A DNA stretch of 64,000 nucleotides. Source: a virus. Its lineage: Duplodnaviria; Heunggongvirae; Uroviricota; Caudoviricetes. The notes under the pieces were generated by a model. It saw only the letters and a program-made list of their open reading frames with translations, searched no databases and had not been told where the DNA came from. Positions 189 through 53,222 of the stretch are shown piece after piece (position 1 is the first letter of the stretch; every line of letters begins with the position of its first letter). The stretch covers positions 1 to 64,000 of the IMG/VR virus record IMGVR_UViG_3300042988_000374, one strand, 5' to 3'. A program made the translations under genes and the position numbers.

Positions 189-217
189 TTGACAGCAAAT
201 AAATTACCTGCTACACT
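189..217 (+). promoter_or_regulatory. sigma70-like promoter (TTGACA-N17-TACACT)
   Basis: TTGACA 189-194, 17-nt spacer, TACACT 212-217; 65 nt upstream of the nadM-like start. Confidence 0.5.
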
Positions 218-282
218 ACTAGCATAAATAAACAAACAGTGGAGATAGACTTTACTGTATCAAATTTACATAGGATTTATGT

Positions 283-1302
283 ATGACTAAAAAATACGAC
301 ACACTGGTACTCATTGGACGCTTCCAACCATTACACTCCGCGCACTTGGAGATTATCAAACGCTCGACCGCGCTCTGTAATAAACTAATTGTGATTGCTG
401 GTAGCGCGGCCCAACCACGTACTTACAAGAACCCATTTACATCCGCCGAACGATCACAAATGATTCGCTCAGCAACCTCCGGTCTTGCTATTCAAATCGT
501 CGTTGAATCGAACATCGACACCATCTACAATGATCAGGCATGGGCAGTACGCATTCAAGAACTTGTCGCTCGTAACACCACTGACGGTGAACGAATCGCC
601 ATCATCGGACACAAGAAGGATGAATCCTCTTTTTATCTATCAATGTTCCCACAATGGGGATTCGAGAACGTAGAAGAAATTGAGCCGCTGTCTGCTGTGA
701 ACATTCGAGACTTGTACTTCAAACGCGGCGCAAACATGTCATTTATCCGCGGCGTTGTTCCACAAACTACGTTTAACTTCTTAGAGCAATTTATGCACAC
801 CGCCGAGTGGCACCAGATTGTTGCAGAGCGTGAGTTCGTTGAGACTTACAAAAAGCAATACGCATCATTGCCATATCCACCAATCTTCTCTACTGCCGAT
901 GCCATTGTCATCTGTAGCGGTCACGTCTTGATGATTCGTCGTCGTGCTGAACCAGGTAGAGGCTTGTGGGCCCTGCCAGGTGGCTATGTAAATGCTAACA
1001 CCGATAAGTCAGTAGAGGATGCCGCTATCCGTGAGTTGCGTGAAGAGACCATGATCAAAGTGCCAGCACCTGTCTTGCGTGGCAACATCAAAGACAGTCG
1101 CGTGTTCGATGCGATTGACCGCTCTCCACGTGGACGTATCATCACTCACGCCTTCAAAATCATGTTGCCTGATGGCGAGTTGCCAAAAGTAAAAGGTAGT
1201 GACGATGCTGAAAAAGCTCGTTGGGTACCTATCGCAGAAGTTCGTAGTGAGGAATGCTTTGAAGACCATTTCGATATGATTCAGTGGGCTATCGGAGGTT
1301 GA
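283..1302 (+). CDS. nadM: bifunctional NMN adenylyltransferase / Nudix ADP-ribose pyrophosphatase (NadM-Nudix, phage NatV-like)
   Basis: N-terminal nucleotidyltransferase motif GRFQPLHSAH; C-terminal Nudix box GGYVNANTDKSVEDAAIRELREETMI. Confidence 0.85.
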   Translation: MTKKYDTLVLIGRFQPLHSAHLEIIKRSTALCNKLIVIAGSAAQPRTYKNPFTSAERSQMIRSATSGLAIQIVVESNIDTIYNDQAWAVRIQELVARNTTDGERIAIIGHKKDESSFYLSMFPQWGFENVEEIEPLSAVNIRDLYFKRGANMSFIRGVVPQTTFNFLEQFMHTAEWHQIVAEREFVETYKKQYASLPYPPIFSTADAIVICSGHVLMIRRRAEPGRGLWALPGGYVNANTDKSVEDAAIRELREETMIKVPAPVLRGNIKDSRVFDAIDRSPRGRIITHAFKIMLPDGELPKVKGSDDAEKARWVPIAEVRSEECFEDHFDMIQWAIGG

Positions 1303-1303
1303 T

Positions 1304-1501
1304 ATGGTAACTGTTGTAAGTACTGTTCCTCATCCTAGTGTGGTCAAGGAAGCAATCTGTAAAAACTGTGGCGCAACATTGAGCTACGTACCAGCAGATA
1401 TTCGGGAACGTGTTGAGGGTGATTACACCGGTGGACGAGACGTGCATCATTATATCGAATGTCCGCCTTGTGGTCACTATGTTAATGTAAAGAGATATTA
1501 A
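1304..1501 (+). CDS. small zinc-ribbon protein
   Basis: CKNCG ... CPPCGH; start overlaps upstream stop (TGATATG). Confidence 0.5.
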   Translation: MVTVVSTVPHPSVVKEAICKNCGATLSYVPADIRERVEGDYTGGRDVHHYIECPPCGHYVNVKRY

Positions 1502-1644
1502 TATGACTAACAAATTGTTTTGCATTGCATTGGGTTGCGCAATTGGAAATTTACTGATGCAGTCGCTGTCGCCCACTCCAGATTATACAGTTGCAATGGA
1601 GCGAACATACTTTGGTTGCATCACGTTACTAACATATTGGTTCT

Positions 1645-1953
1645 GTGAGCGATTCATTTGGAGCCATGATGAATGATACTAGATATCAAATCACTCAGTC
1701 TGATTGGCGTGAATGGGAAGAGCAGTGTTTGGTCAGACTGTTGAGTAACAGTGACTTCAGATATGGCGCCAGTTTTGTGAACTGGTTCCATGAAGCTGCT
1801 GACTACATGGCAGAGTATAGTAATCTAGGAACGCCTGCTGGTGTCCATCATCCAAATGATGACGATATCTTATACAATATTCGCAACAATGATGAAGCGC
1901 TATCATTCATCCGTGAACGAATCGAGATTGTTGAGGACCATGTAAATGGATAA
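1645..1953 (+). CDS. hypothetical protein
   Basis: ORF in gene-dense co-directional block. Confidence 0.4.
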   Translation: MSDSFGAMMNDTRYQITQSDWREWEEQCLVRLLSNSDFRYGASFVNWFHEAADYMAEYSNLGTPAGVHHPNDDDILYNIRNNDEALSFIRERIEIVEDHVNG

Positions 1954-2209
1954 AGCCTGCTACAAAGGATGGAGCGAAGAGCTTGGAAATAAGAGTGGTC
2001 AATGTTGTTGCAATTGTCTCCATCAACGACCAATCGTCGGACATCCTGGTAATAAGCGAGAGTTGACAAAACGTCCATTTAGTGCTATCATTGGGTATGG
2101 TTGCACTATGCCAGAGATTGAGCGAATCGTGTTCTTTGATGGTGAACATGGCATGTGTGAGGGATGGACAGATAGAGACAATGTTGTTAAGATGAGATTG
2201 GAGAAATAA
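1946..2209 (+). CDS. hypothetical Cys-rich protein
   Basis: ATGGATAA overlap with upstream gene; CCCNC motif. Confidence 0.4.
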   Translation: MDKACYKGWSEELGNKSGQCCCNCLHQRPIVGHPGNKRELTKRPFSAIIGYGCTMPEIERIVFFDGEHGMCEGWTDRDNVVKMRLEK

Positions 2210-2211
2210 AG

Positions 2212-2679
2212 ATGTTAAAACACAAAAAAGGTAATCTATTGGATTTGGCAGAAGCTGGCGAATTCGATGTAGTAGTACAGGGCTGTAATTGCTTCAATAC
2301 TATGGGCGGCGGGATCGCCCGTGAGATTCGTGAGCGTTATCCCAATGTCGCATACGTTGATATGCAAACAAATAAGGGCGATTACCATAAGTTAGGCAAT
2401 TGGACATGGGACTTAGCTGGACCAAACGAGTATATCTTAATCAATGCTTATACTCAGTACAACATGAGTACTGGTGAAGATGTGTTTGAGTATGTTGCAT
2501 TTGATCTTATCCTACAAAAGTTACTTTATACACACGGCACAAAGCGAATAGGTTTTCCATTCATAGGTATGGGACTTGCCGGTGGTGATAAAATTCGCAT
2601 CATTGGTATGCTTGAATGGTTCGCGGACGCTGTCTCTGAACTAGGTGGTAGCGTTACCCTTGTGGAGTTTGGAGGTTAA
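2212..2679 (+). CDS. macro domain protein (ADP-ribose binding/processing)
   Basis: N-terminal VVVQGCNCFNTMGGGIAREI resembles the macro-domain NAAN..GGGV motif. Confidence 0.7.
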   Translation: MLKHKKGNLLDLAEAGEFDVVVQGCNCFNTMGGGIAREIRERYPNVAYVDMQTNKGDYHKLGNWTWDLAGPNEYILINAYTQYNMSTGEDVFEYVAFDLILQKLLYTHGTKRIGFPFIGMGLAGGDKIRIIGMLEWFADAVSELGGSVTLVEFGG

Positions 2680-2680
2680 T

Positions 2681-3634
2681 ATGTGGACAAATATTAATGT
2701 TTTTGAAGATGAAGCAGAGCATGTTAAAAAATACGTTTTTGAAAAAGATGATATCGCGGTCGAGTCTGTACTATATCGGTACCCAACTTATGGTGAACGC
2801 ACTGTACTTTGTATTAGTACCATGTGTGGTTGCCCTATGGGCTGTCGTTTCTGTGGCACAGGTGATTACTACGTTCGTAATCTCACCGCTGATGAAATTG
2901 TGGGACAAGCTGAGTACATACTTGACACGCAAATAGGCGGATTAAATCCAGAGGATATTGGCAAATTACAAATCATGGTAATGAGTATGGGTGAGCCTGC
3001 TCTCAACAAGGCACTGGAACAGGCATTTGAAATCTTGTATGCCAAATACCCTAATGCTGCACTGTTGATTAGCTCCAGTGGTCCTCGAGTTGATTACAGC
3101 TGGATTCGTGAAATGAGTGTGCGTATTCCAACCGTGGGCTTGCAGTTTAGTATTCATGAAAGCACCGATGATGCGCGTGACGAATTAATTCCCTTCAAGG
3201 CAAAGATGACGTTGAAAGAAATTGCCAGCGAAGGTACCGCGTGGTACTTTGCAACTGGACGCAAACCTTATTTCAACTACTGCGCACATGAAGGTAACAA
3301 TGGCATACTAGATGTGACCCGTCTGTATGCGTTGTTTGATCCACAAATTTGGGAAGCGACCGTCTCTGTGATTTGCGAACGAGACAGTCATGCTGTGGCA
3401 ACAAACAACAAACAACGAGATTTGGCTATTGATTTTGGCAATGAGCTTGTAAAAATTGGTTACAATGTGCGAGTTTTTGATCCAGCAGGTCAAGATACAA
3501 TCGGGGGAGGCTGCGGACAACTTTGGTACGTACAAGATTGGATGAAAGAACATCCTGAACATGTAAAGCCGTCCGTGGGTTGCGGTCTACAAAAGATCCA
3601 TACACCAAAAGAATGGAATCTAGCGAAAGTCTAA
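2681..3634 (+). CDS. radical SAM enzyme, RlmN/Cfr-like RNA methyltransferase family
   Basis: CPMGCRFC (CxxxCxxC) cluster, downstream VMSMGEPALN (RlmN MGMGEPLxN-like); RBS GGAGG before ATG at 2681. Confidence 0.65.
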   Translation: MWTNINVFEDEAEHVKKYVFEKDDIAVESVLYRYPTYGERTVLCISTMCGCPMGCRFCGTGDYYVRNLTADEIVGQAEYILDTQIGGLNPEDIGKLQIMVMSMGEPALNKALEQAFEILYAKYPNAALLISSSGPRVDYSWIREMSVRIPTVGLQFSIHESTDDARDELIPFKAKMTLKEIASEGTAWYFATGRKPYFNYCAHEGNNGILDVTRLYALFDPQIWEATVSVICERDSHAVATNNKQRDLAIDFGNELVKIGYNVRVFDPAGQDTIGGGCGQLWYVQDWMKEHPEHVKPSVGCGLQKIHTPKEWNLAKV

Positions 3635-3635
3635 T

Positions 3636-4301
3636 ATGAAAATCCAATCACGCTACAAAGATTACTATGACTACGTTGCTCACGCTTATGGTGGCGGCGA
3701 CGAGCGTGTTACCTATGTGCGTGAACCACTCAAAGACGAGTTCACTGTCATTACTACCGACAGTAATCCTAATTTACCATCACCGCGTTTAGATGAATTG
3801 ATGACCAGAATAAAGTGGCTAGCTATCAACGGCAGAGTGTATACTATGGTAGCTGTTAAAGATGATTATTCGGTTGGTGATTACCAGTTGTTTACTGAAG
3901 ATAACTTTGGCGCCATCATTGACGATATTGAACCAAAGTATCGTTGGAAGTGGACATCAAGACAATCAGTCAACTGGGAGAAATATTTTGGAGTAGAGAA
4001 TGAGGTGGTGACCGTGATCAGCCGTGTAATTAGACAACCAGTCTTTATGATCGAGAGTGCCAGGTGGGACTGGAAAGAACGACACTATAAAATAGTACTG
4101 GATAAAAACATTCCTAATCTAGCAAAGCAAGGTATCAGCAGCCATATACAACCAGAACAAATGTACCAAGATATAGCGTACTACGTGTCTAACAAAATGG
4201 TTGATAGTCCAGATTTGATGGTGAATGACAACATGACAGATAAGGAAAAGATCGTCCAACATGGATTCGACCTGAAGCAGAGCTTTAGACATCGAAAATA
4301 A
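3636..4301 (+). CDS. hypothetical protein
   Basis: 221-aa ORF, no recognisable motif. Confidence 0.5.
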   Translation: MKIQSRYKDYYDYVAHAYGGGDERVTYVREPLKDEFTVITTDSNPNLPSPRLDELMTRIKWLAINGRVYTMVAVKDDYSVGDYQLFTEDNFGAIIDDIEPKYRWKWTSRQSVNWEKYFGVENEVVTVISRVIRQPVFMIESARWDWKERHYKIVLDKNIPNLAKQGISSHIQPEQMYQDIAYYVSNKMVDSPDLMVNDNMTDKEKIVQHGFDLKQSFRHRK

Positions 4302-4325
4302 TTTACCAAAAGTGGTAAAAAATAG

Positions 4326-4354
4326 TTGACATTGCAATAAGGTAGTGTTACACT
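4326..4354 (+). promoter_or_regulatory. sigma70-like promoter (TTGACA-N17-TACACT)
   Basis: TTGACA 4326-4331, TACACT 4349-4354; upstream of nadV. Confidence 0.5.
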
Positions 4355-4408
4355 AGAGACAAGTCCTAGAGATAGACTCTAGGCATAACAAGCGATAAGG
4401 AGCTTATC

Positions 4409-5887
4409 ATGAAATTAGCAAATATTGAACAATTACTCGCACCTAGTGAGTCCGATAAACAGTACACTCAAGTTGAACAATTAAAGATTAGTTTAATTTG
4501 TCGTATGGATAGTTATAAATTTAGCCACCCATTTGCATATCGCCCAGGTATCAAAGCAATGTCATCTTATGGTTCGGCTAGAATCAAAAGTGATCAGATT
4601 ACTATTCCAATGGGCATGCAAATTCTAGTCAAACGCTACCTGACAGAATCCATCACTATGCGTGATATTGATGCGGCGGAAGCATTCAGTGAAGGTCACT
4701 TTGGACGTAAACTGTTTGCACGTTCAGCTTGGGAAAAAGTCGTAACAGAGTACAATGGTAAATTGCCATTGGTGATTCGTATGGTACCAGAAGGCACAAA
4801 ATTGCCAGGTGGTCTACCAATGTACACTGTCACTTGCTTTGATGCTGACTTGGCATGGATGAGTGCTGGTTTCGAAACAATGATTCAGCGTGGTATCTGG
4901 TATCCTACTACAATTGCCACTAATGATTATCACATCAAGCGTGATATCAAGCGGTACTATGAAATTACTGGCGCAGATATGGGTTTGCTTCCATTCTCGT
5001 ATCACGACTTCGGTGGCCGTGGCGTAACTTGTGGCGAACAAGCAGAGATTGGCGGCGCCGCACACACTGTTAGCTTTATGGGTAGCGATACCGTTGAAGG
5101 TATTCTAGCTGCTAACTTCTATTACAAAGAACCAATGGCAGCGTATTCAGTATATGCCACTGAGCATAGTATCGAGTGTTCTTTCGGGCCAACTGAAGAC
5201 AATGCTATTGAGTATATTCGTACTCAATTGAAACAAGTTAAGGCATTAGGTCTACCAATCGTATCAATTGTACTAGATGGTTATGATGTATATCGAGAAG
5301 CCGAGTTGTGCTGTACTGTGCTAAAGCAAGATATCATTGATTGCGGCGCAAAAGTAGTGTTCAGACCAGACAGTGGTGATATGATGGAAGTGGTGCCTCG
5401 TCTATTACGAATGCAAGAAATGGCATTTGGAGTTACCATGACTAGCAAAAACTACAAGAAGATTAACACTGTTGGTATTATTCAAGGCGACGGCGTCGAC
5501 CACATGGCGATCAATTCGTTATTGGGTAAAGTGACCGCTGTCTTGGGATATAGTGCTGATTGCGTTATCTTCGGCTCAGGTGGTGCATTGCTTCAAAAAG
5601 TCAATCGTGATACATTGAAATTTGCTCAAAAAGCATGTGCTATCTTGACAGATGATGGTTGGGTTGGCATTGCCAAGAATCCAGTTACTGACAGCGGTAA
5701 GAAATCCAAAGAGGGAGTACTAACTACTGTTCGTAGTAAAATGACTGGTGAGTTTATGACTGCTCGACTCGATCAGGCACCTTTGAATAGCGAGTTCGAA
5801 GACATTATGCAACTCGTTTACTACAAGGGCGATCTGTATAACGAAACCACTTTGGTCGAGATTCGCGCCAGAGTAGACGCTGAGTAA
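4409..5887 (+). CDS. nadV: nicotinamide phosphoribosyltransferase (NadV/NAMPT)
   Basis: 492-aa NAMPT-family protein (FGGRGVTCGEQAEIGGAAH region); pairs with the NadM-Nudix gene as in phage NAD salvage modules. Confidence 0.8.
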   Translation: MKLANIEQLLAPSESDKQYTQVEQLKISLICRMDSYKFSHPFAYRPGIKAMSSYGSARIKSDQITIPMGMQILVKRYLTESITMRDIDAAEAFSEGHFGRKLFARSAWEKVVTEYNGKLPLVIRMVPEGTKLPGGLPMYTVTCFDADLAWMSAGFETMIQRGIWYPTTIATNDYHIKRDIKRYYEITGADMGLLPFSYHDFGGRGVTCGEQAEIGGAAHTVSFMGSDTVEGILAANFYYKEPMAAYSVYATEHSIECSFGPTEDNAIEYIRTQLKQVKALGLPIVSIVLDGYDVYREAELCCTVLKQDIIDCGAKVVFRPDSGDMMEVVPRLLRMQEMAFGVTMTSKNYKKINTVGIIQGDGVDHMAINSLLGKVTAVLGYSADCVIFGSGGALLQKVNRDTLKFAQKACAILTDDGWVGIAKNPVTDSGKKSKEGVLTTVRSKMTGEFMTARLDQAPLNSEFEDIMQLVYYKGDLYNETTLVEIRARVDAE

Positions 5888-6886
5888 TCACCAACATTGT
5901 CGATGTAAGTTAAGCAAGTGCTCTAATGATATAGAGCACTTGCTTCCTTTTCCGCAGTTGTCACGTGCTGGAATCATAGCCAAATTGTGTACACTGCCTA
6001 TTACTTCTGGGTCGACCATATTATAGAAGCCAGCGTTTATGCTGAATTGATGATCTAAGTGATATGCATTAGGGTTAATATCAAGTCTGCCACGCAAATC
6101 GATATTCTTGACTAGATGCTCATTCATAGCAGTAAACTTCCAAACTAAATCATGGTATATTCTGAATGGTTCTTTGTCTTCTTGCTTAACCCACGTACCA
6201 TCAGATTCTCGAAGCGACCGCATATACTCTGTCGTCATGATATTTTTTGAGCCATATAGCTCAATCATAGTATCTTCTGCTTTATCTCGAAACGGGCTAC
6301 AAGATTCCCATGGATTAGCAATCCCATACTTAGCTAACATCACGTTTGTGTAATTCTGCTGAACAACATCAGATTGAAACGGGTGTTCGGTTCCATACTT
6401 TTTGGTGCTTGTGCGTCTGACCTTGTCTGTAAAGTCTTTATGAGTTACGTAATACTTGACTCCGTACAGTCTGATCATAGTCGAGTAGGCAGATTCGCAG
6501 TGACTGTCAACTTCGAACCCATTACCACCATATCGCTCTACTTTAGTTGAGCGTATGGAATTAATTCTATCATCGGCAGTGTTAGCACAGTCACGAGAGC
6601 AATATTCAGCAAACAAATGGCGGTTGACACTCGCACGGTTATCATTGTTTATGATGTTATTACAGTTCTGATTCATGCATCTATATGGTTGATGAATTCC
6701 GGCCTTCATTAGTCTATACGATTGTGTTATAGTTAATGTCGGATATACCAGTGACATATATGACATCAATTCAGTATACATCGTCGGAAATTCTCGTTGT
6801 AACACTCCGACTTTCTTTACGGATATGTAATCTTTGGAAGTCACTAAGTGTTGTTTGGTGAGAGCTAAAGCATATTCTGGTGTCAT
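5888..6886 (-). CDS. HNH-type homing endonuclease with repeated N-terminal ~30-aa modules
   Basis: C-terminal HLDH...N...HNL His-Me finger; repeated YG-containing modules (RYGGNGF, LYGVKYY, KYGTEHP, KYGIANP, LYGSKNI); opposite strand inside a co-directional block. Confidence 0.6.
   Translation of the reverse strand: MTPEYALALTKQHLVTSKDYISVKKVGVLQREFPTMYTELMSYMSLVYPTLTITQSYRLMKAGIHQPYRCMNQNCNNIINNDNRASVNRHLFAEYCSRDCANTADDRINSIRSTKVERYGGNGFEVDSHCESAYSTMIRLYGVKYYVTHKDFTDKVRRTSTKKYGTEHPFQSDVVQQNYTNVMLAKYGIANPWESCSPFRDKAEDTMIELYGSKNIMTTEYMRSLRESDGTWVKQEDKEPFRIYHDLVWKFTAMNEHLVKNIDLRGRLDINPNAYHLDHQFSINAGFYNMVDPEVIGSVHNLAMIPARDNCGKGSKCSISLEHLLNLHRQCW
5912..5950 (+). terminator. rho-independent terminator after nadV
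   Basis: 13-bp perfect stem agcaagtgctcta / tagagcacttgct, loop atgata, then tccttttcc; overlaps the 3' end of the minus-strand endonuclease ORF. Confidence 0.5.
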
Positions 6887-7281: not shown

Positions 7282-8400
7282 ATGGCATACTATCTTAAAT
7301 CCGGAAAAGCATTCACAGTAACATCAAAAGAGGCTATGGATCTTCACGATTCGCTACCAGCTGGTAACTACGTAATCAAAGAGAACCCAATGACGGGCGC
7401 ACTCTTTTTGGAAATGATTGATGACTTTGAAATCAAAGGCAAGCGTTACGGTGACTTGAACAAGAACACTGATCGTATCTTGAATACCTTCAATTCGCGT
7501 CCTACTACTACCGGTGTGATGCTTGCTGGTGAAAAGGGTTCTGGCAAATCATTACTCGCAAAGAGTATCTCCCTATCAGCTAAAGATATGGGCATTCCTA
7601 CAATCGTTATCAACGCACCATGGTGCGGTGATCGCTTCAATTCATTCATTCAGTCTATCGACCAACCATGCGTCATCTTGTTCGATGAATTCGAGAAGGT
7701 ATACGATAGTGAGAAGCAAGAAGCAATCTTGACTCTACTCGACGGTGTGTTCCCAACTAAGAAGTTGTTCGTATTGACTTGTAACGACAAGTGGCGCATC
7801 GACTCACACATGCGTAACCGCCCTGGTCGCATCTTTTACATGATGGACTTTGTTGGCTTGACTGCTGACTTCATCATCGAGTACTGTAACGACAACTTGA
7901 CTAACAAGACGCACACTGATAAGTTGGTCAGTATCGCTACCTTGTTTTCACAATTCAATTTCGATATGTTGAAGGCAACTGTCGAAGAAATGAATCGCTA
8001 TGGTGAAGCGCCAGAAGAAGCACTACGTCTATTGAACGTGAAGCCTGAGTTCGACAGTGGTAAGACGAAATACGGTGTTGAATTGAGTATCGATGGAGAA
8101 CCAGTAGACCCAAAGATGCTAGAGGTCCGCGAGTGGCACGGCAACCCTCTCCAAGCCCACGTAAGCATCGACTACAAAAAGTTGGACGAGCCAGCTACTG
8201 GTCAGTCGGAAGCTACCTCGGATGATGAAATCTCAATCGATGACTGTGATTGGTCTTGGGAGAACGAGCGCTTCATGCAAACTGACTTGAAGAAGATTGA
8301 TAGTCGCGCAGGTCGTTTTGTCTTCCAGAACAGCGATGGCGCTTCCGTAATCTTGACTCGTCTCAAAGAGAAGTCGTACAACTACATGGACGTGCTCTGA
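7282..8400 (+). CDS. AAA+ ATPase
   Basis: Walker A GEKGSGKS, Walker B VILFDEFE. Confidence 0.7.
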   Translation: MAYYLKSGKAFTVTSKEAMDLHDSLPAGNYVIKENPMTGALFLEMIDDFEIKGKRYGDLNKNTDRILNTFNSRPTTTGVMLAGEKGSGKSLLAKSISLSAKDMGIPTIVINAPWCGDRFNSFIQSIDQPCVILFDEFEKVYDSEKQEAILTLLDGVFPTKKLFVLTCNDKWRIDSHMRNRPGRIFYMMDFVGLTADFIIEYCNDNLTNKTHTDKLVSIATLFSQFNFDMLKATVEEMNRYGEAPEEALRLLNVKPEFDSGKTKYGVELSIDGEPVDPKMLEVREWHGNPLQAHVSIDYKKLDEPATGQSEATSDDEISIDDCDWSWENERFMQTDLKKIDSRAGRFVFQNSDGASVILTRLKEKSYNYMDVL

Positions 8401-8741
8401 TGGCATATATTCTACCTAAGGCCAGCGAAGCATCTGATATGATGTGGGATGCTACCTTAGGTGGTGCTGGGCCATGGATCACCTGTAGTTGTGGCATCGA
8501 ACATTCAGTGCCATGTGATGTTGATGGTGATTACGACCATCGCGACAACTTTGAATATGTCCATCTAGATGGTCAGACCTTTGTTGTTGGTTGCGATGGT
8601 TGCTCAAAGAAGTTGGCAAAGTATGAGAACTTTATTTGGTCTAATAGAGATGCGATTAGACGCTATCTAAAGATTCGCATCGATCAAGAAAAAGCATGGG
8701 CCGACCAAGAGGCTCTACTTAACACGCTGGCAGGAATTTAA
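8400..8741 (+). CDS. hypothetical Cys-rich protein
   Basis: ATG overlaps upstream stop; CSCG..C..CDGC. Confidence 0.5.
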   Translation: MAYILPKASEASDMMWDATLGGAGPWITCSCGIEHSVPCDVDGDYDHRDNFEYVHLDGQTFVVGCDGCSKKLAKYENFIWSNRDAIRRYLKIRIDQEKAWADQEALLNTLAGI

Positions 8742-8742
8742 A

Positions 8743-9174
8743 ATGCAAACAGTTGATTGTTATATCGATACTGAGTTCAATGGCTTTGGCGGGAAATTAA
8801 TCTCTCTAGCTATTGTAACGGAGTATGGTAGTGAGTTCTATGAAGTACTGGAGTGTCCTGCTCCTGTACCTTGGGTAGCGCAACATGTGATGCCTATCCT
8901 AGAGAAGGAACCGGTGTCGTTCGAAGTATTCCAGGCAAAGTTACAGGCATTCTTGTTCCATATGCCACAGATCAGGCTTATCGCCGATTGGCCAGATGAC
9001 ATCAAGTATTTCTGTGAGTCTCTGATTGTAAGCCCTGGTGTAGCAATCAATCATCCGCCTATCTCGTTTGTGCTTGATCGAACGCTAAGCAGTGGTGCGA
9101 GTAAGGTACCACACAATGCGTTACATGATGCGAGGGCTATTGCGGATGCGCACCAGGGGATTGGTCATGAATAA
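8743..9174 (+). CDS. DEDDh 3'-5' exonuclease (DnaQ/RNase T-like)
   Basis: N-terminal DTEF exo I motif, C-terminal HNALHDA exo III motif. Confidence 0.7.
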   Translation: MQTVDCYIDTEFNGFGGKLISLAIVTEYGSEFYEVLECPAPVPWVAQHVMPILEKEPVSFEVFQAKLQAFLFHMPQIRLIADWPDDIKYFCESLIVSPGVAINHPPISFVLDRTLSSGASKVPHNALHDARAIADAHQGIGHE

Positions 9175-9523
9175 GCCCTCACCATTCGAGATTGGATTCA
9201 GACTCTACATGAATGGATTCGGTATCTCTCATTTGGTCGGTGCAGTAGAGCACGACGGACAGTTAGAGGCAGCGCACAGAGGATACGAGGCCGCAAAACA
9301 GGAAGACATTATGAATAAAAAGATTAAACCAGAGTATTTTGAATTCGCATTACAAACAGGCGGTTCACACTATCCAGGTGTTGGTGGTGAATTGCTATCA
9401 ACATTTGGTGATATGATTGCACGTGAGTGTGCTAAGATTGCTCGAAGCAACGAGGACAATACTACTGCTAGGCAGATAGAGAGTAGATTTGGATTAGAGG
9501 AAGAAGATGACACACAACTTTGA
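9167..9523 (+). CDS. hypothetical protein
   Basis: ATGAATAA overlap with upstream gene. Confidence 0.45.
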   Translation: MNKPSPFEIGFRLYMNGFGISHLVGAVEHDGQLEAAHRGYEAAKQEDIMNKKIKPEYFEFALQTGGSHYPGVGGELLSTFGDMIARECAKIARSNEDNTTARQIESRFGLEEEDDTQL

Positions 9524-9770
9524 ATTAACAGTAAGTGCCAGTTTATCTGGTAAATTAACAGAGGACATTGTTCGCTCCGTAGTGGAGGAACAGACTGGCA
9601 AGAAGGTCGCTAGTCTGACACCTAAGATACGTTCTGAGCAACGTGGTATGAGCGTAGGAGCTAGTAGCACACAAGTATTTGATGGTTATGACATCAAATT
9701 TATTCCAGAGCGAGTAGCCAAGAGTAATCAAACAACTAAACCACAATTTAAGGAAGACAAATATGAGTAA
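9507..9770 (+). CDS. hypothetical protein
   Basis: ORF. Confidence 0.4.
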   Translation: MTHNFELTVSASLSGKLTEDIVRSVVEEQTGKKVASLTPKIRSEQRGMSVGASSTQVFDGYDIKFIPERVAKSNQTTKPQFKEDKYE

Positions 9771-14417: not shown

Positions 14418-14643
14418 CGAATTAGCGCATCAGGCATTAGCCGAGCATGTGCAAGCAAATATCGATTCTAAAGTATCAGAGCAATACTTAAACAGATTCG
14501 CCGAGTTGCTCATTAAGGAATGTTGTGCTACGATCACAAGTCAAGGTAACGCTGAATGCCTTGACGACTGGGACAGTGGCTTTCACTGTGGTTTAGATTC
14601 AGCAGTTAAATCAATTCAAAAACAATTTGGAGTAGACGCATGA
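14401..14643 (+). CDS. hypothetical protein
   Basis: RBS AGGAG before ATG 14401. Confidence 0.45.
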   Translation: MNRRIDELAHQALAEHVQANIDSKVSEQYLNRFAELLIKECCATITSQGNAECLDDWDSGFHCGLDSAVKSIQKQFGVDA

Positions 14644-14897
14644 CACAAGCTAAAAAAGTACTTTGGTTCAAAGATGAAAAACATGATAAAGTATGGGGTT
14701 TCATCGCCGTTGGTGATGAGCAATGGGTAACATTCTGGGGTCGCCGTGGCGCTAAGCTCCAGACCAAAGCATGGGAGGGCTCACTGAGTGATGGTATCGC
14801 CATGTTAGACAAGAAGGTTCAAAAAGGTTACCGTGAAGTGGGCGCCGACTTCTTAGATGATGTTTATCCAGATCTGGAAGAGTTAGTCCAGCAATGA
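14640..14897 (+). CDS. stand-alone WGR domain protein
   Basis: KVWGFIAVGDEQWVTFWGRRGAKLQTK matches the W-G-R signature of WGR domains (PARP/MolR-associated). Confidence 0.6.
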   Translation: MTQAKKVLWFKDEKHDKVWGFIAVGDEQWVTFWGRRGAKLQTKAWEGSLSDGIAMLDKKVQKGYREVGADFLDDVYPDLEELVQQ

Positions 14898-53147: not shown

Positions 53148-53222
53148 TGGTGCGTGTGGAGAGAATCGAACTCTCATTCAACGTTTTAGAGGCGCTTTCC
53201 TTAACCACTAGGATACACACGC
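53148..53222 (-). tRNA. tRNA with CUA anticodon (amber suppressor-type), CCA encoded
   Basis: minus-strand cloverleaf: acceptor GCGUGUG/CACACGC, D-stem UCCU/AGGA, anticodon loop C-U-CUA-A-A, T-arm GAGAG-UUCGAUU-CUCUC, discriminator A, genomic CCA. Confidence 0.65.

Follow-up and report, generated by a model that had tools for sequence, protein, structure and literature searches.

Gene content of the locus

Positions 283–5887 of a 64,000-nucleotide stretch of Caudoviricetes DNA (positions 1–64,000 of the IMG/VR virus record IMGVR_UViG_3300042988_000374; hereafter designated the window) form a single, tightly packed block of co-directional + strand genes, among them four main genes that encode a bifunctional NadM-Nudix protein, a macro-domain protein, a radical S-adenosylmethionine (SAM) enzyme, and NadV. 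An earlier interpretation based on the letters and translations (hereafter the sequence-only reading) had placed these four genes at the same positions and regarded the block as a module for rebuilding nicotinamide adenine dinucleotide (NAD+), in which a probable RNA methyltransferase was embedded. We found that the core of this module is ordinary and that the new element is the linkage of the radical SAM gene with NAD salvage. The block and its borders contain the following features.

189..250 (hexamers 189–217), + strand: candidate sigma-70-like promoter, TTGACA-N17-TACACT with extended TG, then GGAGATAGAC; upstream of NadM-Nudix, a consensus match only
283..1302, + strand: NadM-Nudix, bifunctional nicotinamide mononucleotide (NMN) adenylyltransferase / Nudix (ADP-ribose pyrophosphatase-type), the Nmnat half of NARP2 (Pfam, NCBIfam, PDB 2QJO)
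1304..1501, + strand: zinc-ribbon protein, 65 aa, phrog_2834; starts 1 nt past NadM
1503–1676, + strand: doubtful 57-aa open reading frame (ORF), not called in an identical Logan contig
1645–1953 and 1946–2209, + strand: two small ORFs without family matches (ORF list, Pfam, PHROG)
2212..2679, + strand: macro-domain protein, Poa1p/Adpp-like, candidate ADP-ribose-1''-phosphate phosphatase (phrog_335, PDB, AlphaFold2 (AF2) fold)
2681..3634, + strand: predicted class A (RlmN/Cfr-type) radical SAM methyl synthase core without the HhH2 domain (NCBIfam, alignment, AF2/Foldseek)
3636..4301, + strand: 221-aa protein, phrog_4243; 1 nt past the radical SAM gene
4326..4377 (hexamers 4326–4354), + strand: second promoter-like copy plus AGAGATAGAC inside a short inverted repeat; upstream of NadV
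4409..5887, + strand: NadV / nicotinamide phosphoribosyltransferase, the Nampt of NARP2 (Pfam, NCBIfam, PDB 7YQO)
5888–6886, − strand: homing-endonuclease-like gene (DUF7487, phrog_3339 and phrog_12131) that closes the block, its end abutting the NadV stop codon

Spacers of 1 nt separate NadM from the zinc-ribbon gene, the macro gene from the radical SAM gene, and the latter from the 221-aa ORF, and a gap of 107 nt precedes NadV. A megablast search with the whole block gave no nucleotide match among 50,697 phage records, indicating that the block has no close sequenced relative there; its genes were therefore identified through their proteins.

A NARP2-type core for NAD+ reconstitution

NadM-Nudix matched CTP_transf_like (1.3e-12) and NUDIX (2.3e-20) in Pfam, aligned over its full length with the bifunctional enzyme of Synechocystis (2QJO, 4e-82), and passed one equivalog cutoff, that of NCBIfam PRK05379.1-5 (358.5 bits vs 354). 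NadV matched both NAMPT_N and NAPRTase in Pfam, exceeded the cutoff of NCBIfam PRK09198 (437 bits vs 405), and aligned with Xanthomonas NAMPT (7YQO, 6e-103) as well as with human NAMPT structures. The catalytic residues are kept in both proteins: NadM-Nudix has GRFQPLHSAH, in which the HxGH motif appears as HSAH (G to A), an SxxxxR-type motif, and the Nudix core RELREET, and NadV has HDFG, ATEHS with the phospho-/catalytic His, RPDSGD, and QGDG. NadV/Namat-like genes occur in 2007 phage records, none of which exceeds 42% identity to the window NadV.

Nampt plus Nmnat constitutes the pathway NARP2 (Osterman et al. 2024, bioRxiv 10.1101/2024.02.11.579819). By homology, NadV and the bifunctional NMNAT-Nudix are such a pair, and NAD+ synthesis during infection is predicted from the resemblance to Vibrio phage KVP40, whose NARP2 pair abolishes Thoeris and DSR2 defence; NARP2 is present in about 1% of phages (bioRxiv 10.1101/2024.02.11.579819). 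The Pfam, NCBIfam, and PDB matches thus bear out the NAD+ reconstitution module proposed for 283–5887. The route produces NAD+ from nicotinamide, 5-phosphoribosyl-1-pyrophosphate (PRPP), and ATP, ADP-ribose (ADPR) not being a substrate, and it also cancels RES-type defence (aRES) (bioRxiv 10.64898/2026.01.28.702374). In the window, NadV would convert nicotinamide and PRPP into NMN, which the NMNAT half of NadM-Nudix would adenylate to NAD+, and the rebuilt NAD+ would refill the pool drained by Thoeris, DSR, SIR2-HerA, SEFIR, or RES-type defences. Of the two starting materials named in the sequence-only reading, nicotinamide stands but ADP-ribose does not, since the Nudix half provides no direct feed of ADPR. 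The proposed counteraction of NAD+-depleting defences was read correctly, but it is not a new logic: the NARP2 core of this locus is already published.

The window resembles KVP40 (10.1101/2024.02.11.579819; Lee et al. 2017 cited there) in pairing a NAMPT-clade NadV with a bifunctional NadM-Nudix in a large phage and in the predicted chemistry, from nicotinamide, PRPP, and ATP to NAD+. It differs in that NadV is separated by 3.1 kb from NadM-Nudix, which is upstream and on the same strand, with 7 or 8 ORFs between the two, including the macro and radical SAM genes. No KVP40-like phage was found among the best 30 of 41 tblastn matches of the radical SAM protein.

An Adpp-like macro protein

In Pfam, the macro protein scored 16.4 bits against Macro, under the cutoff of 22, although a few of its close homologues do carry a precomputed PF01661 match. 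Other comparisons were clearer. The protein matched phrog_335 at 1e-35, and its best PDB sequence match was yeast Poa1p (6LFU, E 0.003), which is an ADP-ribose-1''-phosphate phosphatase. Its AF2 model (predicted local distance difference test score, pLDDT, 80) returned macro domains only in Foldseek, namely DarG, alphavirus (CHIKV), coronavirus, Poa1p, and TARG1 (E 3e-6 to 1e-4), with Poa1p showing the highest identity (21–22%). The modelled structure is that of a macro fold, and the assignment as an ADP-ribose-handling domain is upheld by the PHROG, PDB, and AF2 evidence, the Pfam score by itself being sub-threshold.

Because Poa1p is its closest characterised relative, the window macro protein resembles Adpp, the Poa1p-like macro protein present in 15% of NARP1 operons, which converts ADP-ribose-1''-phosphate (ADPR-1''P), the product of aRES, into ADPR (bioRxiv 10.64898/2026.01.28.702374). 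It is therefore most likely to be Adpp-like, that is, a candidate ADPR-1''-P phosphatase. The likeness extends to the NARP1-AP operon of Vibrio phage Gary (Adps-Adpp-Namat; 10.64898/2026.01.28.702374), where a Poa1p-like macro protein is likewise embedded in a phage NAD+ reconstitution operon and yeast Poa1p (6LFQ/6LFU) is the same closest characterised homologue. The window macro gene, however, belongs to a NARP2 block and not to a NARP1 (Adps/Namat) operon, and its comparison with Gary gp137 runs through Poa1p; in a related locus (L111), a member of the macro family does follow Adps-Namat. The protein would dephosphorylate ADP-ribose-1''-phosphate, produced by RES-type NAD+ phosphorolysis, to ADP-ribose, and the Nudix half of NadM-Nudix may then split ADP-ribose into AMP and ribose-5-phosphate, recycling the debris towards PRPP and ATP.

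A class A radical SAM enzyme without the RNA-binding domain

The radical SAM gene starts at ATG 2681, not at GTG 2645, as judged by the agreement of N-termini within the family. The 317-aa protein matched the RlmN model TIGR00048 (1.5e-25, 89.9 bits vs a cutoff of 290) and the Cfr models at about 1e-24 to 1e-23 (TIGR04432, 85 vs 550; NF000424, 82 vs 530), so that its scores are 3–6 fold below the equivalog cutoffs for RlmN or Cfr proper. Its AF2 model (pLDDT 86.9; predicted TM score 0.86) has the RlmN-type partial TIM barrel with a beta-extension and a C-terminal Cys loop and resembled RlmN or Cfr in all of the top 11 PDB matches by Foldseek (E 1e-16 to 5e-12, TM 0.57–0.71), followed by viperin at 3e-6.

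Class A enzymes are defined by two further conserved cysteines; the methylene radical that they add to an sp2 carbon is carried by a cysteine (PMC9692996). In the alignment, the CX3CX2C cysteines for the [4Fe-4S] cluster (C51/C55/C58), the resolving cysteine C44 (RlmN C118), the methyl-carrying cysteine C278 in GGGCGQL (RlmN C355), and E28 (equivalent to RlmN E105) are invariant both in the phage family and in true RlmNs, and so is the GEP motif, as part of the family-invariant SMGEP (102–106). The RlmN/Cfr-like cysteine motif and the GMGEP-like motif perceived in the sequence-only reading are thus real. With these invariant residues and the RlmN fold, the protein is by sequence a genuine class A methyl synthase that keeps all catalytic hallmarks, its activity being predicted.

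Compared with E. coli RlmN (3RFA/5HR7) and Cfr (9P0P), the window enzyme shares the fold, CX3CX2C, the carrier and resolving cysteines, the E105 equivalent, GEP, and GxCGQL, at only 20–25% identity and with 'SVICE' in place of the 'NLIPxN' strand. A larger difference lies at the N-terminus. RlmN and Cfr possess HhH2, a positively charged N-terminal module that binds rRNA (PMC13001441), whereas the RlmN model aligned with the window enzyme only from position 71 of 355, about 70 residues corresponding to HhH2 being missing. Moreover, the family is acidic, with a median net charge of −7 and pI of 5.6 (n = 127), in contrast to +7.5 and 8.9 for RlmN-type relatives (n = 8). The enzyme differs from the basic, HhH2-carrying RlmN and Cfr also in its NAD-salvage gene context. 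Sequence comparison shows these proteins as a distinct, mostly phage-borne subfamily that, as judged from the alignment, has lost the RNA-binding HhH2 domain.

Recurrent association with NAD-salvage genes

The family is rare in isolated phages (about 13 records at 45–55% identity among the tblastn matches listed), abundant in metagenomes, and found in diverse bacterial genomes and metagenome-assembled genomes (MAGs). Large IMG/VR contigs were the source of relatives, and the radical SAM protein recurs unchanged on contigs as long as 150 kb; taken with the PHROG matches elsewhere in the window, this assigns the window to a large tailed phage. We clustered the ORFs of 132 loci, representing 96 lineages at <85% radical SAM protein identity, and counted the neighbour families within 5 kb of the radical SAM gene.

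NadM-Nudix / Nudix / NrtR: 21 of 96 lineages
NadV / Namat: 18 of 96 lineages
Nicotinamidase-like isochorismatase: 10 of 96 lineages
NadE: 5 of 96 lineages
PncB: 5 of 96 lineages
Adps: 5 of 96 lineages
Best non-NAD neighbours (two unknowns, RtcB, metallophosphoesterase, deoxyribosyltransferase-like): 5–6 lineages each

The top three NAD families exceed the best non-NAD families, with which NadE, PncB, and Adps are on a par. In 28 of the 96 lineages, one or more NAD-synthesis genes are encoded no farther than 6 kb from the radical SAM gene; these represent three pathway types, namely NARP2, NARP1, and PncA/PncB/NadE, the last with the regulator NrtR. Full 8-kb flanks were available for 48 lineages. 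Of these, 18 are linked, 12 within 0.5 kb and none at 4–8 kb, showing that the linkage is one of adjacency and not of regional co-residence; 49 of 65 linked genes have the same orientation as the radical SAM gene. Taken jointly, NARP1 and NARP2 are carried by about 5% of phages (bioRxiv 10.1101/2024.02.11.579819), from which we estimate, with no computed control, that a random gene in a genome of at least 100 kb would lie within 6 kb of NARP1/NARP2 well under 1% of the time. The NAD-linked lineages are scattered over the family tree, and the gene orders and pathway types vary, so that synteny inherited from one phage lineage was rejected as an explanation of the linkage. Representative gene orders (rSAM, radical SAM gene) are as follows.

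L022 and L075: NadM-rSAM-NadV
L006 and L068: NadM-NadV-rSAM
Vibrio phage 496E54-1: Adps-Namat-rSAM
L072: Adps-x-x-rSAM-Namat, with a 4-bp overlap
L111: rSAM-Adps-Namat-...-Macro
L115 (Ornithinimicrobium isolate), 7354–9664: PncA-rSAM-NrtR, with overlapping stop/start codons
L105 (7938–11578), L110, and L114 (Saccharibacteria-binned contigs): PncB-PncA ... rSAM ... NrtR-NadE

In six cellular contigs (L115, L105, L110, L114, L094, and L136), belonging to the Ornithinimicrobium isolate, Saccharibacteria MAGs, and a Clostridiaceae MAG, a short radical SAM gene abuts NrtR, with PncA/PncB/NadE nearby. The NrtR neighbour consists of a Nudix domain and the NrtR winged helix and belongs to the ADPR-responsive NAD regulators. 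The L091 locus encodes a fusion of the radical SAM core with a Nudix domain, after which come a NAPRTase-family gene and a stand-alone NMNAT. Collectively, these neighbourhoods show that the subfamily recurs in operons with NAD-salvage genes from three kinds of pathway and with NrtR, and it is likely that the linkage is functional. As to the sequence-only reading of the radical SAM protein as an embedded RNA methyltransferase, the RlmN/Cfr-type chemistry holds, but the gene is not a stray one unrelated to NAD. Its assignment to A2503 of 23S rRNA or A37 of tRNA has no better than an even chance and is unproven, given the recurrent partnership with NAD genes and the missing RNA-binding N-terminal domain.

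Two further loci were observed in this survey. The L006 cluster, whose radical SAM protein is 78% identical to that of the window, is on a 436-kb contig (GCA_013565635.1, JACCDQ011652650.1) from an assembly with contig numbers into the millions and may be of jumbo-phage or contaminant origin within a large eukaryotic or metagenomic assembly. P0252 (759 aa) has a more RlmN-like core without the N-terminal domain, fused to a dGTPase-type HD/HD_assoc domain; by its domain composition, it is an independent second case in which a truncated class A methylase is joined with a nucleotide hydrolase.

Possible substrates of the radical SAM enzyme

On balance, we regard the locus as probably a phage NARP2-type NAD+ reconstitution system with two accessory enzymes, the macro protein and the radical SAM enzyme. 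The latter would methylate an sp2 carbon, C2 or C8 of adenine, in a substrate connected with the turnover of NAD, the candidates being NAD+, ADPR, a signal derived from ADPR, and an NAD-capped RNA end, rather than A2503/A37 in housekeeping methylation. A precedent is given by accessory enzymes that convert NAD-derived products or signals into NARP substrates, namely Adpp and RyDEP, a RyR-domain glycosidase that is inserted in a NARP1 operon and processes NAD-derived molecules (PMC13232231). RyDEP is likewise an unrelated enzyme inside a NARP operon, a positional analogue of the radical SAM gene in L072, whereas its fold and chemistry are wholly different. The adenine C2/C8 chemistry, together with this precedent, points to an adenine-containing, NAD-related nucleotide, possibly including NAD-capped RNA. 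We consider a non-RNA, NAD-related nucleotide as the substrate only tentatively, and the more specific proposal, that this would be the first class A radical SAM enzyme with a non-RNA substrate, C-methylating the adenine (C2/C8) of NAD+, ADP-ribose, or a TIR-derived signal of the cyclic ADP-ribose type, is rather unlikely.

Several observations weigh against the proposed accessory roles. The macro family is very common in phages (2710 records), so its placement in the window may be coincidental, and the need for an Adpp-like macro protein is questionable, as NARP2 alone cancels aRES and needs no ADPR (10.64898/2026.01.28.702374). About two thirds of the radical SAM lineages have no NAD gene within 8 kb. 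In Stenotrophomonas phage ANB28 (L001/L172), the 100 kb that were examined contain no NAD gene; there, the radical SAM gene is located within the array of tRNA genes, with an RtcB RNA ligase gene about 10 kb away. Obligate coupling to phage NAD genes was rejected on account of ANB28 and a mouse-gut clade (P0394) with none nearby. Thus, the enzyme needs no phage-encoded NAD synthesis, and an RNA substrate stays a serious possibility. In 5 lineages, L077 among them, RtcB is encoded no farther than 5 kb from the radical SAM gene, which raises a possible connection with RNA repair. The Nudix fusion, which we had weighed as Rosetta-stone evidence, was given less weight, since it forms a cluster of its own on a single 9-kb contig and its Nudix domain is MutT-like rather than ADPRase-like. 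Class A methyl synthases are slow and consume two SAM molecules per turnover, as known from RlmN/Cfr enzymology, which makes it less plausible that a millimolar NAD pool is modified in bulk. To our knowledge, every characterised class A enzyme acts on RNA.

Much of this would be accommodated by a phage RNA methyltransferase, forming 2- or 8-methyladenosine at A37 of tRNA or A2503 of 23S rRNA, of host or phage, so as to tune translation or to shield RNA from anticodon nucleases or ribosome-targeting toxins; the proximity to NAD genes would then merely reflect a shared early/accessory region. We consider this explanation doubtful, and an ordinary tRNA or rRNA as the substrate equally so. It agrees with RlmN and Cfr being the closest matches in sequence and fold, with the conservation of every catalytic residue, with the position of the ANB28 gene among tRNA genes in a genome that also carries RtcB, with the RtcB neighbours in the 5 lineages, and with the lack of NAD linkage in most lineages. 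At the residue level, 3 of the 12 mapped RNA contacts of Cfr are kept in the window enzyme; its R194, K195, and Y197 match the Cfr U-turn residues R249, K250, and Y252. On the other hand, HhH2 is absent, the protein is acidic, and the scores are far under the equivalog cutoffs (90 vs 290 for RlmN and 85 vs 550 for Cfr). Co-residence in one region, moreover, fails to explain the insertion between NARP core genes with overlapping codons, the involvement of three NAD pathways, the adjacency to NrtR in cellular genomes, and the Nudix fusion.

An improbable alternative is that the linkage is physiological, the NAD supply being co-encoded or co-regulated for NAD(P)H-dependent flavodoxin reduction, or that the enzyme has another target, such as DNA adenine or a free (deoxy)nucleoside triphosphate for genome modification. 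Radical SAM clusters are indeed reduced through NADPH-dependent flavodoxin or ferredoxin systems, but many NAD(P)H-dependent phage enzymes do not cluster with NARP genes, and no other redox enzyme recurs in the radical SAM neighbourhoods. A nucleotide target would fit the distant relatives that lack the N-domain and are fused to nucleotide hydrolases (MutT-like Nudix in P0138, dGTPase-like HD in P0252) as well as the nucleoside 2-deoxyribosyltransferase-like neighbour in 5 lineages; each fusion, however, was observed once, and an acidic protein is a poor DNA binder.

Full-text literature searches yielded no paper in which phage NAD reconstitution, NAMPT, or NrtR is connected with a radical SAM or RlmN-like enzyme, and nothing relevant on RlmN in phages; the papers on NARP1, NARP3, aRES, and RyDEP do not mention a radical SAM enzyme. 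NAD+ depletion is among the commonest antiviral strategies of bacteria, and NAD+ reconstitution by phages, with accessory enzymes such as Adpp and RyDEP, is an active frontier. A radical SAM methyl synthase that recurs in NARP1, NARP2, and NrtR-controlled operons is a natural next candidate for an accessory enzyme, and one with a well-understood mechanism. If the substrate is an NAD-derived nucleotide, class A chemistry would extend beyond RNA to a new reaction of counter-defence or NAD homeostasis: the phages, and some bacteria, would possess an NAD analogue that resists or inhibits NADases, or a means of inactivating an immune signal, adding a new chemical layer to the NAD+ arms race alongside NARP1, NARP2, or Preiss-Handler salvage under NrtR control. 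If the substrate is RNA, modification of the translation apparatus would be tied to NAD status.

Promoter-like sites and other features of the window

Identical hexamers (AAAAATAGTTGACA-N17-TACACT, with extended TG) precede both NadM and NadV, each followed by a GAGATAGAC element, and this matching pair of sequences suggests co-regulation of the two genes. Promoter-like sites in total were not above the shuffled expectation, and GAGATAGAC was set aside as a shared regulatory element, since the window shows no enrichment of the 10-mer (7 matches vs 3.4 expected).

In 11 related contigs, the zinc-ribbon protein (phrog_2834) is encoded no more than about 4 kb from the radical SAM gene, and in several it is immediately 5' to that gene. 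The 221-aa protein was rejected as a partner of the radical SAM enzyme; it matched phrog_4243 only, with no PDB or Pfam match, and its adjacency is not conserved elsewhere. A stand-alone WGR domain protein, proposed in the sequence-only reading for the 85-aa ORF at 14640–14897 (+ strand), failed in profile searches: no match was obtained in Pfam at E ≤ 10, in PHROG, or in NCBIfam, and the PDB gave only spurious sums of WD40 repeats, so that the string 'WGRRG...KKVQKGYRE', which by eye recalls WGR domains, lacks profile support.

Elsewhere in the window, PHROG matches include an ATP-dependent DNA ligase, AAA ATPases, homing endonucleases, and a virion protein. In the related contigs L007–L010, a 355-aa minus-strand gene lies just upstream of NadV, and NadV may be a homing target. 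In the same contigs, at about 1332–2752, a homologue of ribosomal protein S21 directly follows a ClpX-like/AAA ATPase gene, a few kb 5' of NadM. The only tRNA gene in the window (53148–53222, − strand) has a CUA anticodon of the amber-suppressor type and is labelled tRNA-Pyl by ARAGORN.

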